Shown in pieces: positions 10,071 to 18,308 of a DNA stretch of 32,000 nucleotides. Numbering within the stretch: the stretch's first letter is position 1; the number at the start of each line of letters is the position of its first letter. The position numbers and the translations under genes were made by a program. The notes under the pieces are model-generated. The model searched no databases, was not told the DNA's origin, and was given only the letters and a program-made list of their open reading frames with translations. Origin of the DNA: Longivirga aurantiaca (GTDB lineage Bacteria; Actinomycetota; Actinomycetes; S36-B12; CAIYMF01); assembly GCF_042660085.1 (NCBI RefSeq), contig NZ_JBHSTI010000002.1, positions 270,001 to 302,000 on the forward strand, read 5' to 3'.

Positions 10071-13046
<2,976 letters not shown>

Positions 13047-13110
13047 CTACCCCCTCGGATTGAGCGCTCGCGGCCGACTCGTCGCCGCGGGTGGCGCCTG
13101 ACGTGCCACG

Positions 13111-13965
13111 ATGGGCGTCGTGCCCGCTGAGACCCTCATCACCGTGGCCCCGACCGGGGCCGAAACCGACAAATCGGACGCTCCGGCCCTGCCCGTGACG
13201 CTCGACGAGCTCGTGGCCACCGCGAAGGCCTGCGAGGCGGCTGGCGCCGGCCTCATCCACGTCCACATCCGCGACGCCGATGCCCGGCCCACGCTCGACC
13301 TCGGGCGGCTGACCGACACGGTCCAGGCGCTCCGCGAGGGCACCGACCTCGTCGTCCAGCTGAGCACGGGCGGAGCGGTCACCGACCCCTTCGAGCACCG
13401 TCTGCGGGTCCTCGACGCCGACCCCGACTCGTGCTCGCTCACGTGCGGCACGGTCAACTTCGGGTCCGACGTCTTCATGAACCCCTGGGACTTCATGGTC
13501 GAGCTCTACCGCAAGACCCAGGCTCTCGAGGTGGTGCCCGAGTTCGAGCTCTTCGACCTCGGTCACGTGGCCGCGCTCAACCGGCTGCTGGACAAGGAGG
13601 GCCTCCCGTACGGCGGGAAGGTCCACTGCGACCTCGTGCTGGGCGTCCCGGGCGGGGCTCCGGGAACGACGGAGTCGGTCGTGACCATGGCCCGGATGCT
13701 CCCCGAGGGCGCGACCTGGTCCGCCACCGGTGTCGGCCGGTCGACCATGCCGGTGGCCCTCGCGGCCCTCTCGGCCGGCGGCCATCTGCGCGTCGGCATG
13801 GAGGACACGCTCACGTACGCCCCGGGCCGCCCGGTGCGTGACAACGCAGAACTTGTAGAAAGAGCCGCTGAGCTCTCAAGGTTGGCCCTGCGCGTGCCGA
13901 TGACCGTGGAAGGGGCGCGTGCAATGCTCAACATCAAGGACCGAAGGACTGGGGTGGCCGCATGA
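13111..13965 (+). CDS. 3-keto-5-aminohexanoate cleavage enzyme family (BKACE, DUF849)
   Basis: LITVAPTGAE..P.LPVT.DELV..AKACEAAGAGLIHVHIRD....PTLD..RL..TV.ALRE.TDLVVQLSTGG..CSL.CGTVNFG.DVF.N..EFELFD.GH...GGHLRVGMEDT. Confidence 0.85.
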   Translation: MGVVPAETLITVAPTGAETDKSDAPALPVTLDELVATAKACEAAGAGLIHVHIRDADARPTLDLGRLTDTVQALREGTDLVVQLSTGGAVTDPFEHRLRVLDADPDSCSLTCGTVNFGSDVFMNPWDFMVELYRKTQALEVVPEFELFDLGHVAALNRLLDKEGLPYGGKVHCDLVLGVPGGAPGTTESVVTMARMLPEGATWSATGVGRSTMPVALAALSAGGHLRVGMEDTLTYAPGRPVRDNAELVERAAELSRLALRVPMTVEGARAMLNIKDRRTGVAA

Positions 13966-14519
13966 CCAAGCCGATGCCGGGTGGACGCCGTCGCGTCGAC
14001 CGAGTGCTCGACCCCGCGTTCGTCCAGGGCGTCGAGGACCTGACCATGGCCGAGGTGCGCGAGCGTCGCGCCGACGCCGATCAGGAGGAGACCGACCTCT
14101 CGCACAACCGCTCCAAGCTGATCGCGCGCATCGACCTGCTGAAGGCGGAGCAGTCGCGTCGCGCGGGCACGATGGAGGGCTCGATCATCGACGCGCTCCC
14201 GCAGATCCTCGCCGGCCCGGGCCAGCGTCGGACCCACGGCAGCGGCCGGCACATCCACACCGAGCCGAGCCGTCTCGACGAGCACCGTCGCAAGGAGGAG
14301 GCGATCGTCGCCGACACCGAGCTGTCGGACGTCTCGCACCTGACCGACGACGAGCTCGTCGCTGGGATCGCGGCGCTGCAGGAGGCCGAGCACGAGGTGT
14401 CCGAGGTCCGTCACGACGTCCAGCAGGTCATGGACTTCTTCCAGGCCGAGATCGGACGTCGCTACCGCGAGGGCCTCGCGAACGTCGACGACCTGCTCAC
14501 CGCGCCTCCCGGTGCCTGA
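13962..14519 (+). CDS. RsiG-like protein (candidate c-di-GMP-binding anti-sigma factor of the WhiG/FliA-type sigma)
   Basis: E143-HEV-S147-EV-R150-HDV-Q154-QVM-D158 is a perfect E(X)3S(X)2R(X)3Q(X)3D motif. E43-TDL-S47-HN-R50-SKL-I54-ARI-D58 is the same motif with Q replaced by I, exactly 100 residues earlier. The start ATG overlaps the BKACE stop (ATGA). Confidence 0.6.
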   Translation: MTKPMPGGRRRVDRVLDPAFVQGVEDLTMAEVRERRADADQEETDLSHNRSKLIARIDLLKAEQSRRAGTMEGSIIDALPQILAGPGQRRTHGSGRHIHTEPSRLDEHRRKEEAIVADTELSDVSHLTDDELVAGIAALQEAEHEVSEVRHDVQQVMDFFQAEIGRRYREGLANVDDLLTAPPGA

Positions 14520-15474
14520 CCGCTCGTCGGTCGTCCTCGCCGAGGTCGTCCGGAGCGGTTTCGTCGAGGGCGTCCACCGGGGCTCCCTCGTCGTCCTGGA
14601 CGCCGACGGCACCCTGCTGCACGCGTACGGCGACATCACGTCGCCGGTGTTCCCGCGCTCGTCCAACAAGCCGATGCAGGCCGCGGGCCTGGTCGAGCTC
14701 GGCTACGCCGGGCGCGACGCCCGGCTCGCGATCGCGGCGGCGTCCCACTGGGGCGAGCCGCACCACCTCGTGACGGTCCGCGAGGTGCTCGCCGCCGCCG
14801 GGCTCGACGACTCCCACCTCCGCACGCCGGCGGACTGGCCCGCGGGCGACGCCGCACGGGACGAGCTCGTCCGGGCGGGCGGGCACGCCGCTCCGATCTT
14901 CATGAACTGCTCGGGCAAGCACGCGGCGATGCTCGCGACCTGCGTGGCGCAGGGCTGGCCGCTCGACGACTACCGCGCCGCCGACCACCCGCTGCAGCAG
15001 CACCTCGCCGGCACCGTCGCGCGGATCGCGGGCGAGACGCCGTCGGACGTCGGCATCGACGGCTGCGGCGCCCCCGTGCTCTCGCTGTCCCTGACTGCCC
15101 TCGCCCGAGCCTTCTCCCGGTGCGTCACGGCCGAGCAGGGCTCCCCGGAGAGGCTCGTCGCCGACGCCATGCGGGCCCATCCCGCCCAGGTCGGCGGCCA
15201 CGGACACGACGCCACCCTGTTCATGCAGGGCGTGCCCGGGCTCCTCGTGAAGGACGGCGCGGAGGGTGTATACGCCGCCGCTCTCGGCGATGGCCGTGCG
15301 GTGGCGCTCAAGGTCGACGACGGCGCAGCGCGTGCGCGGCCGCTGCTCCTCGCTGCGGCGCTGCGCTCGCTCGGGGTGCAGGCGCCAGTGCTCGAGGAGT
15401 TCGTCGAGCTCACGCTGCTCGGCGGCGGCGTGCCTGTCGGCGCCGTCCGCGTCGAACCCGCTCTTTTCGCCTGA
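14512..15474 (+). CDS. Asparaginase II-type (asparaginase_II family) protein
   Basis: LAEVVRSGFVEGVHRGSLVVLD..G......G.....VFPRSSNKPMQA..........HWGEP.H...V........CSGKHAAML..GIDGCGAP..DGAEGV. The GTG at 14512 overlaps the upstream gene by 8 nt. Confidence 0.8.
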   Translation: MPDRSSVVLAEVVRSGFVEGVHRGSLVVLDADGTLLHAYGDITSPVFPRSSNKPMQAAGLVELGYAGRDARLAIAAASHWGEPHHLVTVREVLAAAGLDDSHLRTPADWPAGDAARDELVRAGGHAAPIFMNCSGKHAAMLATCVAQGWPLDDYRAADHPLQQHLAGTVARIAGETPSDVGIDGCGAPVLSLSLTALARAFSRCVTAEQGSPERLVADAMRAHPAQVGGHGHDATLFMQGVPGLLVKDGAEGVYAAALGDGRAVALKVDDGAARARPLLLAAALRSLGVQAPVLEEFVELTLLGGGVPVGAVRVEPALFA

Positions 15475-15531: not shown

Positions 15532-16026
15532 TCAGCAGCAGGCAGGGGCTCCGGCGGTGGCGGGCTCCGGCTCGGTCGCGGCGGCGTCGGGAGCGCAGCA
15601 GCCGGCCTCGGTCGACGTCGTGATGTCGTCGGCGAAGAAGGTCGGGCTGTCCGACAGCACCGTGTAGATCTCCCAGCGCTCGCCGTCCGGGGAGCCCTCG
15701 ACCCAGAACTTGTCCTGCTTCGCGTAGCAGCAGGTCGTGCCACGCTCGTCGATCGAGGCCAGCCCGCCCTCCGCGAGCCGGGTCTGGGCGGCATCCACGT
15801 CGTCCACGGACGGCATCTCGACACCGAGGTGGTTGAGCGTGCCGCCCTGGCCCTTGTTCTCGAGCAGCACGAGCTTGAGGGGCGGGCTGGTGATCGCGAA
15901 GTTGGCGTATCCCGGTCGCGTCTTGGCGGGCTCGACGCCGAAGAGCTTGGAGTAGAAGGCGGTGGCGGCCTCGACGTCGTCGACGTTGAGAGCGAGCTGC
16001 ACGCGGGCGGGGGCGGTCGTTCCCAT
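15532..16026 (-). CDS. ArsI/CadI-family VOC (glyoxalase-fold) metalloenzyme with a Cys-rich C-terminal tail
   Basis: RVQLALNVDDVEAATAFYSKLFGVEPAKTRPGYANFAI..PPLKLVLLEN.G.GGTLNHLGVE..GTTCCYAKQDKFWV..GERWEIYTVL is very close to M. tuberculosis CadI and to ArsI C-As lyases, including the vicinal CC pair. The tail carries GCCAPD...APACC. The ATG at 16026 is preceded by GGAGGA. Confidence 0.85.
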   Translation of the reverse strand: MGTTAPARVQLALNVDDVEAATAFYSKLFGVEPAKTRPGYANFAITSPPLKLVLLENKGQGGTLNHLGVEMPSVDDVDAAQTRLAEGGLASIDERGTTCCYAKQDKFWVEGSPDGERWEIYTVLSDSPTFFADDITTSTEAGCCAPDAAATEPEPATAGAPACC

Positions 16027-16045
16027 GGTGTCCTCCGAGAGTTTC

Positions 16046-16077
16046 ATCGATGTTCATCAATATCGATCTGTATCGAT
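16046..16077. promoter_or_regulatory. AT-rich divergent promoter/operator region with three ATCGAT palindromes (candidate ArsR operator)
   Basis: ATCGAT occurs at 16046, 16062 and 16072 within TTCATCGATGTTCATCAATATCGATCTGTATCGATG. This is the only strongly AT-rich stretch between the ArsI/CadI gene and arsR. Confidence 0.4.
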
Positions 16078-16114
16078 GTTGCCCCGAAGGATCGACCCAT
16101 GTCAATATTCATGC

Positions 16115-16489
16115 ATGTCGAAGAATGCAGCGGTGCCGGCCAGCCCCGCACTGGAGCTGCCGGTGCTCGACCTGGCCGACTGCTGCGCGCCCATCCGGCG
16201 CGAGCCGATCGACGCCGATGGCGCGGTGACGCTGGCCGAGGCGTTCAAGGCCCTGGCCGATCCGGTGCGGTTGCAGCTGCTCAACCTCATCGCTACCGCC
16301 GACACCGGCGAGGCCTGCGCGTGCGACCTCGTCGAGCCGGTCGGCAAGAGCCAGCCCACCGTCAGCCATCACCTCAAGGTGCTGCGCGAGGCCGGCCTCA
16401 TCGAGGGCGAGAAGCGCGGCACCTGGGTCTGGTACTCCGTCGTTCCGTCCCGGCTCGACGAGCTGCAGCGTGTCCTCGGCCGGCGCTGA
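16115..16489 (+). CDS. arsR: ArsR/SmtB-family metalloregulator
   Basis: LAEAFKALADPVRLQLLNLIA....GEACACDLVEPVGKSQPTVSHHLKVLREAGLIEGEKRGTWVWYSV. The start is ATG 16115; ATG 16076 is an alternative. Confidence 0.85.
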   Translation: MSKNAAVPASPALELPVLDLADCCAPIRREPIDADGAVTLAEAFKALADPVRLQLLNLIATADTGEACACDLVEPVGKSQPTVSHHLKVLREAGLIEGEKRGTWVWYSVVPSRLDELQRVLGRR

Positions 16490-16539
16490 CCCACCGACGA
16501 ATCCGCACCTCACCAACCCCTCAGACCGCTGGAGCCCAC

Positions 16540-16962
16540 GTGTCGACCAAGCCCTCCGTCCTGTTCGTCTGCGTGCACAACGCGGGCCGTTCCCAGATGG
16601 CGGCGGCCTACCTCACCCACCTCGCGGGCGACCGCATCGAGGTGCGCTCGGCGGGATCCGCGCCGGCCGACTCGGTGAACCCGGCCGTGGTCGAGGCGCT
16701 GCTCGAGGAGGGCATCGACATCTCGGCGGAGACCCCCAAGGTGCTCACCACCGAGGCGGTCCAGGCGTCCGACTACGTCATCACCATGGGCTGCGGCGAC
16801 GCGTGCCCGTTCTTCCCCGGCAAGACCTATCTCGACTGGGTCCTCACCGACCCGGCCGGCCAGGGCGTGGACGCCGTGCGCCCGATCCGCGACGAGATCC
16901 GCGGTCGCATCGAGGGGCTGATCGCCGAGATCGACGCGGCTGCGGCCTCCTCGGCGTCGTGA
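16540..16962 (+). CDS. arsC: Arsenate reductase, LMW-PTPase type
   Basis: VLFVCVHNAGRSQMAAA (CX5R P-loop)..IEVRSAGSAP...VNP.VVEAL.E.GIDIS...PK.L......SDYVITMGCGDACP. Confidence 0.9.
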   Translation: MSTKPSVLFVCVHNAGRSQMAAAYLTHLAGDRIEVRSAGSAPADSVNPAVVEALLEEGIDISAETPKVLTTEAVQASDYVITMGCGDACPFFPGKTYLDWVLTDPAGQGVDAVRPIRDEIRGRIEGLIAEIDAAAASSAS

Positions 16963-17672
16963 CGCCGCTGCCCCTTCCCCGGCGCCTGCTCGCCGAGGGC
17001 CTCGGCACGCTGCTGCTCGTGGCCACCGTCGTCGGGTCCGGGATCGCGGCGGCGTCCCTCTCTCCGGGCAACGTCGGTCTGCAGCTCCTCGAGAACGCGC
17101 TCGCCACGGGTGCGGTCCTGTTCGTGCTGATCGCCACGCTCGGCCCGGTGTCGGGCGCGCACTTCAACCCCGTGGTCACCGGCATCGACGCCTGGCTCGG
17201 CGGCCTCCCCAAGCGGGATGCGCTGCCCTACGTCGTGGTGCAGGTGGTCGGCGCCTGCCTCGGTGCGGTGCTGGCCAACCTCATGTTCGGGCTCGCCGCC
17301 GTGTCGGTCTCGACGCACGAGCGCACCGGCTCGGCGCTCTGGCTGTCGGAGGTCGTGGCCACCTTCGGGCTCCTGCTCGTCATCCTCGGCCTCGTGCGCG
17401 CCGGCCGATCGTCGTGGATCCCGGCCGCCGTGGCGTCGTACATCGTGGGCGCCTACTGGTTCACGGCCTCGACGTCGTTCGCGAACCCGGCCGTCACCAT
17501 CGGACGCACGCTGTCCGACACGTTCGCCGGTATCGCGCCGGCGAGCGTGCCCGGCTTCGTCGTGGCGCAGGTGCTCGGAGCGGTCCTCGCGACGGTCGTC
17601 GTCCTCGTGATCTGGCCGCGCCACTCGGCGGCGGTGGCGGTGGCCATCGACGTCCAGGAGGAGACGCGCTGA
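16959..17672 (+). CDS. MIP-family channel (aquaglyceroporin, AqpS/GlpF-like) within the ars operon
   Basis: The GTG overlaps the arsC stop (GTGA). LAEGLGTLLLV..SGAHFNPVVT (first NPx box)..FANPAVTIGR (NPA box); six predicted hydrophobic segments. Confidence 0.85.
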   Translation: MTPLPLPRRLLAEGLGTLLLVATVVGSGIAAASLSPGNVGLQLLENALATGAVLFVLIATLGPVSGAHFNPVVTGIDAWLGGLPKRDALPYVVVQVVGACLGAVLANLMFGLAAVSVSTHERTGSALWLSEVVATFGLLLVILGLVRAGRSSWIPAAVASYIVGAYWFTASTSFANPAVTIGRTLSDTFAGIAPASVPGFVVAQVLGAVLATVVVLVIWPRHSAAVAVAIDVQEETR

Positions 17673-17753
17673 GCGTCACGCCCTGAGCACGCGACTCAGC
17701 CGGTCGCGCGGACGAGACCGGCGCTGACGCCGTGGTGGCGCCGTGGAGGTGCC

Positions 17754-18308
17754 ATGAACGACCGCCACGCCGACGACGAGGCAGCGGTGGTCGGCAGGCT
17801 CCCGCCTGGACCGCTTCCTGCCCGTGCGGATCCTGCTGGCCCTGGCCGGCGGTCTCGCGCTGGGACGGCTGCTCCCCAGCGTGCTGGGTGCGCTCGACGC
17901 CGTGAAGATCGGCCAGACGTCCTTGCCGATCGCGCTCGGGCTGCTGCTGATGATGTACCCCGTCCTGGCCAAGGTCCAGGGCGAGGCCATCACGTCCGAC
18001 CCGCTCGCGGTGGTGAGCATCGCCGTCCCGCTGCTCGTCTACTTCGCGATCATGTGGGGGTCTCGTTCCTCGTCGGATCCCGGTCGGGGATGACCTACCC
18101 GAAGACGGCGGCCCTCGCGTTCACCGCGGCCGGCAACAGCTTCGAGCTCGCGATCGCCGTGAGCATCGGGGTCTGGGGCGTCACGTCGGGCCAGGCGCTG
18201 GCCGGTGTGATCGGCCCGCTCATCGAGATGCCCGCGCTGGTCGCGCTCGCGTACGTGAGCCTCGCCCTCCGTCGTCGCTGGCACCGGCCGCTGGTCCGAT
18301 CCGGGTGA
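17754..18308 (+). pseudogene. acr3: Decayed acr3 (arsenite efflux permease ACR3 family) remnant
   Basis: ATG at 17754 with a GGAGG RBS. ACR3 signatures appear in two frames. Frame of 17754: MNDRHADDEAAVVGRL. Frame +1: SRLDRFLPVRILLALAGGLALGRLLP..KIGQTSLPIALGLLLMMYPVLAKV|QGEAITSDPLAVVSIAVPLLVYFAIMWG. Back in the first frame: VSFLVG..YPKTAALAFTAAGNSFELAIAVSIGVWGVTSGQALAGVIGPLIEMPALVALAYV. About 180 central codons of a normal ACR3 are missing. Confidence 0.7.

Follow-up and report, generated by a model that had tools for sequence, protein, structure and literature searches.

The window analysed here, a stretch of 32,000 nucleotides from Longivirga aurantiaca, contains a gene for a 185-residue protein of the RsiG family, the anti-sigma factors described in Streptomyces as partners of the sigma factor WhiG under the control of cyclic di-GMP (c-di-GMP). 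As shown in Table 1, this gene, named here rsiG, lies between a gene for a beta-keto acid cleavage enzyme (BKACE) and a gene for a class-3 asparaginase II, with a long gene for a PATAN/DUF4388 protein transcribed divergently from the BKACE gene, and two sites resembling WhiG-type promoters were also found in the region. The assembly comprises 3.67 Mb in 71 contigs, with 96% completeness and 72% G+C, and its closest homologues come from metagenome-assembled genomes (MAGs) labelled "Candidatus Nanopelagicales".

Table 1. Features of the rsiG locus, with positions numbered from the first letter of the window.
Feature	Position	Strand	Evidence
Gene for a 970-residue PATAN/DUF4388 protein, divergent from the BKACE gene, predicted WhiG target	10071..12983	-	Pfam PF14332, E 7.5e-13
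Putative WhiG-type promoter of the PATAN/DUF4388 gene, TCAA-N16-GCCGAAGA	13036..13063	-	Motif match
BKACE-family gene, upstream of rsiG	13111..13965	+	Pfam PF05853, 293 bits
Candidate WhiG-type promoter in the 3' end of the BKACE gene, 58 nt before the rsiG ATG, TCAA-N16-GCCGATGA	13876..13903	+	
rsiG, 185-residue twin-motif RsiG-family anti-sigma factor	13962..14519	+	Pfam PF22802; alignment to 6pfj_T; AF2/Foldseek
c-di-GMP motif 1, helix alpha1: E43, S47, R50, I54, D58 (Ile at the Gln/His position)	14088..14135	+	
Loop H92-G-S-G-R-H97, counterpart of the S. venezuelae loop with His110, Ser112 and Arg115	14235..14252	+	Alignment to 6pfj_T
c-di-GMP motif 2, helix alpha5: E143, S147, R150, Q154, D158 (canonical)	14388..14435	+	
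Class-3 (Rhizobium etli-type) asparaginase II-family gene	14512..15474	+	Pfam PF06089, 351.9 bits; 8cly, E 1.9e-44

A preliminary description of the locus had recognized the protein as RsiG-like from two copies of a short motif for the binding of c-di-GMP, and the comparisons with profiles and structures agree with this, with a homology that extends far beyond these motifs. The protein scored 87.6 bits with the Pfam model PF22802 ("RsiG-like", cut-off 27), with two matched stretches along its length, and its residues 23-179 align to the RsiG chain of Streptomyces venezuelae (6pfj_T; 6PFJ/6PFV) with an E value of 2.3e-25. An AlphaFold2 (AF2) model based on 28 homologues was obtained with a mean pLDDT of 77.9 and a pTM of 0.70, and the four top matches of this model in the Protein Data Bank (PDB) were all RsiG chains (6pfj_T and 6pfv; Foldseek E around 1e-6, TM scores of 0.61-0.74), the next match having an E value of 0.68. 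The model predicts the antiparallel coiled-coil fold of RsiG, with long helices at residues 29-67 and 129-169. Residues G8, R10, R11 and D13 of the N-terminus are invariant among the 28 homologues, supporting that the ATG at 13962 is the start codon of rsiG. A search of the protein against NCBIfam did not match any RsiG model, and gave as sole match a glutathione S-transferase at a meaningless E value of 0.096; in databases, proteins of this kind are labelled either "RsiG-like" or "aerial mycelium formation protein".

The two motifs were located by a pattern search of the translation, ETDLSHNRSKLIARID beginning at residue 43 and EHEVSEVRHDVQQVMD at residue 143, separated by exactly 100 residues as had been noted before, and each of them sits on one of the long helices of the model, where it had been expected. 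Motif 2 matches exactly the published pattern E(X)3S(X)2R(X)3[Q/H](X)3D, and motif 1 keeps four of its five consensus residues, Ile54 being outside of the pattern, for a total of nine canonical residues out of ten. Comparison of helix alpha1 with the helix of motif 2 at an offset of 100 showed 10 identical positions out of 39, a value that fits with the internal duplication of the motif helix already published for RsiG (PMC8325347). The loop between the helices also has its counterpart in S. venezuelae, as H92, S94 and R96 align to His110, Ser112 and Arg115, residues that contact c-di-GMP (PMC7005675). All 28 homologues have R96, and nearly all have G93 and G95; confidence in this part of the model is low, with pLDDT values under 50 across residues 87-102. 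The Glu, Ser and Arg residues of both motifs were invariant across 129 homologous loci, so the motifs reflect homology and not chance. The idea that they could be fortuitous matches in an unrelated coiled-coil protein found nothing in its favour and is refuted by the homology in sequence and fold over the full length of the protein, in such a way that its probability is negligible.

The preliminary description had considered unusual that no sigma factor gene was found close to rsiG. The whiG gene indeed lies on another contig, but this is not unusual, since rsiG (vnz19430) and whiG (vnz26215) also occupy separate loci in S. venezuelae (PMC7005675). A single sigma factor of the FliA/WhiG family was found above the cut-off of TIGR02479 in the genome (C8:898040-898723; 279.5 bits versus 189.6), with an E value of 4.1e-113 against the WhiG protein of S. 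venezuelae. The WhiG2 clade, whose members are regulated by RsiG, is defined by eight residues, three of them in contact with c-di-GMP (K57, G61, R62) and five with RsiG (T235, L236, Y239, E240, L242) (preprint 10.64898/2026.01.14.699351), and all eight are identical in the WhiG protein of this genome. FlhA was not matched in the genome (96% complete), so that this sigma factor is not flagellar. Diguanylate cyclases (DGC), which had been proposed as a further element to look for, are represented by 19 GGDEF matches over the cut-off, indicating that the organism makes c-di-GMP, and two HD-GYP homologues were found elsewhere in the genome, away from the rsiG locus. We infer that the protein binds c-di-GMP and forms a complex with this WhiG, and we estimate at around 0.85 the probability that it is an orthologue of RsiG, a c-di-GMP-armed anti-sigma factor that sequesters WhiG. 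The identification itself is routine, as publications already cover the RsiG family, including its structure and how widely it occurs in the Actinomycetota, and the present protein is one more twin-motif member with a rare pocket variant, and it adds a Nanopelagicales-type lineage with a complete set of WhiG2, RsiG and c-di-GMP enzymes.

Two observations weigh against this assignment. In WhiG, the residue Arg43, which in S. venezuelae is the salt-bridge partner of RsiG Asp142, aligns to an Ala here. In RsiG, helix alpha1 has diverged in the subclade to which the protein belongs, with Ile54 for Gln/His, His48 for Tyr, Ser for R51 and Lys for M/L52, so that the affinity or the dependence on c-di-GMP could differ. 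The presence of Ile instead of Gln in motif 1, already pointed out in the preliminary description, is real and rare among homologues. Of the 120 best database homologues, 92 have His at position 54, 22 have Gln, 4 have Ile and one each has Thr or Leu, and in the 129 fetched loci this residue was always Gln or His, except for the four to six closest genomes; also in the literature, only Gln or His are described at this position (PMC8325347, PMC7005675). Ile54 is confined to a subclade of at least 85% identity, which has as well His48 where the others have Tyr or Phe, and which reads "SHNRSKLIARID" instead of the "S[YF]xRR[ML]L[HQ]GR[IM]D" of the others. In S. venezuelae, Gln75 of RsiG stacks on the rotated guanine, Asp79 reads the Watson-Crick face of the guanine, and the Tyr at the position of His48 stacks on Tyr58 of WhiG (PMC7005675). 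In addition, 9 of 20 near-relative loci of the genus encode an RsiG with Ala or Ser instead of Asp at residue 58, where motif 2 stays canonical, so motif 1 looks relaxed in this lineage at its outer guanine pocket.

These changes could correspond to an RsiG homologue with a weakened or asymmetric dependence on c-di-GMP, in which one outer guanine pocket had degenerated through Ile54 and His48 and WhiG was bound with altered affinity, with another stoichiometry of the nucleotide or without any need for c-di-GMP. The restriction of both residues to the subclade, the replacements of Asp58 and the roles of Gln75 and Asp79 in S. venezuelae speak for this possibility, but the protein studied here preserves E43, S47, R50 and D58 as well as the residues of the loop and the entire motif 2, an aliphatic Ile can still pack on the face of the base, and the residues K57, G61 and R62 by which WhiG contacts c-di-GMP are conserved, so that we consider it unlikely. 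For its part, the combination of Ala or Ser at position 58 with an intact motif 2 suggests that the two c-di-GMP pockets are asymmetric throughout the lineage. The natural Ile/His variant offers a ready-made test of the contribution of the stacking residue to binding.

In addition to the two matches over the cut-off at the rsiG locus, PF22802 gave a second hit in the genome, on contig C31 (14167-14328, minus strand, equivalent to L002:1183-1875, minus strand), within a protein of 230 residues encoded between a Crp/Fnr-type regulator and an endonuclease III. Only one family stretch was matched in this protein (43.2 bits) and its motif is degenerate (ExxxAxxRxxxTxxxD), reasons for which it was rejected as a second RsiG, and it is probably not a c-di-GMP-binding member of the family.

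Regarding the neighbours of rsiG, the BKACE protein scored 265 bits with the Kce equivalog model of NCBIfam, below the cut-off of 382 bits, and the asparaginase homologue keeps the SxxK, NCSGKHA and DGC segments of 8CLY, the enzyme of Rhizobium etli. The TGA stop codon of the BKACE gene (13963-13965) overlaps the ATG of rsiG (13962-13964) as ATGA, and the first available start of the asparaginase II gene, the GTG at 14512, leaves an overlap of 8 nt with the end of rsiG; independent gene calls on a near relative gave the same two overlaps, including that of 8 nt. The overlaps to which the preliminary description had drawn attention are real, but the wedged position of rsiG is not the unusual feature that it took it for, since asparaginase II and, in this order, BKACE are the normal, conserved context of the gene. 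The order BKACE-rsiG-asparaginase II was found in 19 of the 20 near-relative loci fetched (all but one of the same genus), and also in other Nanopelagicales, in Actinokineospora and in MAGs of the Mycobacteriales, and asparaginase II follows rsiG directly in most Amycolatopsis loci and in 5 of 10 Streptomyces loci.

To study the linkage with asparaginase II across the phylum, 400 genomes of Actinomycetota were drawn evenly, and coordinates were listed for both genes in 83 of them. Both were on the same contig and not more than 2.5 kb apart in 64 of these 83 genomes, with the enzyme gene downstream and on the same strand as rsiG in 63 of the 64. The gap between them was of up to 300 nt in 26 genomes, around 1.0-1.45 kb in most of the 26 that fall in the 300-1600 nt band, and around 2.0-2.2 kb in most of the 12 above 1600 nt, and wherever a locus with a longer gap was checked, an HD-GYP (HD_5) gene was present in it, accompanied in some of them by a receiver gene. 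In lineages of Actinomycetota that belong to other classes, a receiver and/or an HD-GYP gene (HD_5, a putative c-di-GMP phosphodiesterase) comes after rsiG, and only then asparaginase II (L122:1330-3459; L143-L150), and gaps of about 1.0, 1.3 and 2.0 kb match such inserts in those lineages. The conservation in the sample and in the near relatives indicates that this context of rsiG is ancient and typical of the family. In the literature searched, no paper linked RsiG with asparaginase and none discussed its synteny, so the order rsiG-(HD-GYP)-asparaginase across the phylum is a strong and apparently unreported linkage, a hint that the switch may have an input or output so far unexplored.

Such a linkage, and the overlap between the genes, could be explained if the protein worked with its metabolic neighbours, for example as a regulatory subunit or a c-di-GMP sensor for the BKACE or asparaginase enzymes, instead of as an anti-sigma factor. 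Against this, the distributions of RsiG and asparaginase II disagree at the family level, with families in which RsiG appears without the enzyme (f20, 26/26 genomes versus 0/26; f27, 7/10 versus 0/10) and others with the enzyme without RsiG (f17, 4/4 genomes versus 0/4 for RsiG; f19). Furthermore, RsiG is a proven anti-sigma factor in Streptomyces even though asparaginase II is missing from the 1.5 kb around rsiG in the Streptomyces genomes nearest to S. venezuelae, and from the whole genome in one of them, and a WhiG2 partner with all the contact residues is present in the genome studied here. This explanation is therefore very improbable. For the same disagreement between families, the possibility that asparaginase II is obligatory for RsiG was rejected. 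A scan for sigma-70 promoters and intrinsic terminators between positions 12900 and 15700 found nothing, a result that is uninformative on the operon boundaries.

The published promoter consensus of WhiG2 is T(A/C)AA-N16-GCCGATAA (preprint 10.64898/2026.01.14.699351). A loose version of this motif, T[AC]AA-N15-17-GCCGA, gave 125 matches in the genome, mostly within coding sequences, and was replaced as too permissive, while the strict form TCAAG-N14-16-GCCGATG was found 8 times, versus 1.08 expected under a first-order Markov model. Consensus WhiG promoters were detected as sequence matches before plausible target genes, as matches to TCAA-N15-17-GCCGAT lie just upstream of genes for a PilT-like ATPase, a PilB-like ATPase with an MshEN domain, a pilin-like protein (recognized by eye from its N-terminus, with no Pfam match), two GGDEF-EAL proteins (GGDEF by Pfam, EAL by eye), a methyl-accepting chemotaxis protein and a LuxR-type response regulator. 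The matches on contig C8 lie at 477728(-), 696294(-), 710807(+), 809109(+), 1374625(-), 1448351(+) and 1453050(+), and precede genes for the PilB-like/MshEN ATPase, the two GGDEF-EAL proteins, a secreted protein of 226 residues, the LuxR-type atypical response regulator, the PilT-like ATPase and the pilin-like protein. It is plausible that these genes together form a WhiG regulon. The predicted regulon resembles published WhiG2 regulons (PMC8325347; preprint 10.64898/2026.01.14.699351), a resemblance that counts for the RsiG assignment. The identification likewise lends support to the published view that, in organisms other than Streptomyces, type IV pili and the turnover of c-di-GMP are under the control of the WhiG/RsiG switch. 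At the rsiG locus, the boxes of the putative promoter of the PATAN/DUF4388 gene are kept in 22 of 41 related loci, with spacers that vary.

The second site of the locus is embedded in the last codons of the BKACE gene. It reads TCAAGGTTGGCCCTGCGCGTGCCGATGA and is one of the eight strict matches of the genome. It is built from TCA-AGG-TTG, codons that are used here at 1.2%, 3.2% and 0.8% within their respective synonymous families, and the change from the BKACE consensus of the genus LATLALRPPM to LSRLALRVPM involves amino acid replacements that create both promoter boxes. The site is present in the four genomes of the Ile54 subclade, in which its two substitutions are both in the spacer, and a fifth lineage, with Thr54, has TCC in place, giving TCCAGG. 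When 130 homologous loci were inspected for a WhiG-type promoter before rsiG, none but those of the closest subclade had it, with the exception of two isolated matches, so the RsiG family at large does not share this feature. The last 40 or so codons of the BKACE gene (13837-13965) are rich in triplets that are rare in the genome (CTT, GTA, AGA, TCA, AGG, TTG, CGA and ACT), which would be accounted for by the embedded WhiG-type promoter together with the ribosome-binding region of rsiG. On the basis of these sequence features, we slightly favour that the site acts as a WhiG-dependent promoter. Other members of the genus have different rare codons in this place (GCT AGT/ACC CTC, which may represent a TANNNT -10 element). 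Together with the Ile/His pocket variant and the linkage to asparaginase II, this probable WhiG promoter within the coding region of the preceding enzyme could be of interest to specialists.

According to the mechanism that we propose, the two antiparallel helices (around residues 29-67 and 129-169), with one motif each, and the loop H92-G-S-G-R-H97 would clamp a dimer of c-di-GMP, and the loaded RsiG would bind and sequester the WhiG2-type sigma-28 factor encoded on another contig. A fall in c-di-GMP would release WhiG, allowing it to transcribe the genes for the type IV pilus ATPase, the pilin-like protein, the GGDEF-EAL proteins, the chemoreceptor, the LuxR-type regulator and the PATAN protein, as suggested by their promoter matches. 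In the subclade, free WhiG would probably transcribe also rsiG and the downstream asparaginase gene from the embedded promoter, generating a negative feedback. A more speculative proposal, against which we would still bet, is that rsiG, the HD-GYP gene and the class-3 asparaginase gene constitute an ancestral, phylum-wide module tied to the WhiG switch, rewired in the Nanopelagicales subclade through the WhiG promoter within BKACE and the changes of Gln/His to Ile and of Tyr to His. If this were true, the enzyme genes of the module would feed into the WhiG switch or be co-regulated with it, and in the subclade the sigma factor would drive its own anti-sigma factor.

The closest known system is that of S. 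venezuelae, whose RsiG (Vnz19430, formerly AmfC; 6PFJ, 6PFV) is also a monomeric twin-motif protein, with around 42% identity over 155 residues. Both proteins share the antiparallel coiled-coil, predicted in our case, the canonical motif 2, the His/Ser/Arg of the loop and a whiG gene at a separate locus. They differ in Ile54 for Gln75 and His48 for Tyr69, and in an N-terminus around 20 residues shorter here, as deduced from the offset of the alignment (residue 23 corresponding to residue 44). In contrast to S. venezuelae, rsiG overlaps here both neighbours, is preceded by a possible WhiG-type promoter, and the predicted output of WhiG consists of type IV pili, c-di-GMP enzymes and the PATAN protein and not of the sporulation genes whiH and whiI. 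In the S. venezuelae RsiG-WhiG study, vnz15005 is reportedly a further target of WhiG, in addition to the named targets whiH and whiI (the latter two in preprint 10.64898/2026.01.14.699351).

The RsiG of Rubrobacter radiotolerans (7LQ2-7LQ4) belongs to the same family, with an E value of 0.0035 over helix alpha1, and that organism is a unicellular actinobacterium whose WhiG regulon, with type IV pili and genes for DGCs and phosphodiesterases (PDE), is like the one predicted here. By contrast, its RsiG has a single motif and works as a homodimer, whereas here both motifs are in one chain, a situation described in the literature as the derived state. FlgM, the classical anti-sigma-28 factor of flagellated bacteria, is alike in sequestering a sigma factor of the FliA/WhiG family. 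However, FlgM has an unrelated fold, does not need c-di-GMP and is set free when it is secreted by the flagellar export apparatus, of which FlhA, as said above, has no match in this genome.

Directly downstream of the asparaginase II gene lies an arsenic-type cluster (15532-18308), with genes for a glyoxalase/ArsI-like protein, ArsR, a low-molecular-weight phosphatase of the ArsC type and an MIP channel, and the same arsenic-type genes follow asparaginase II in near relatives.

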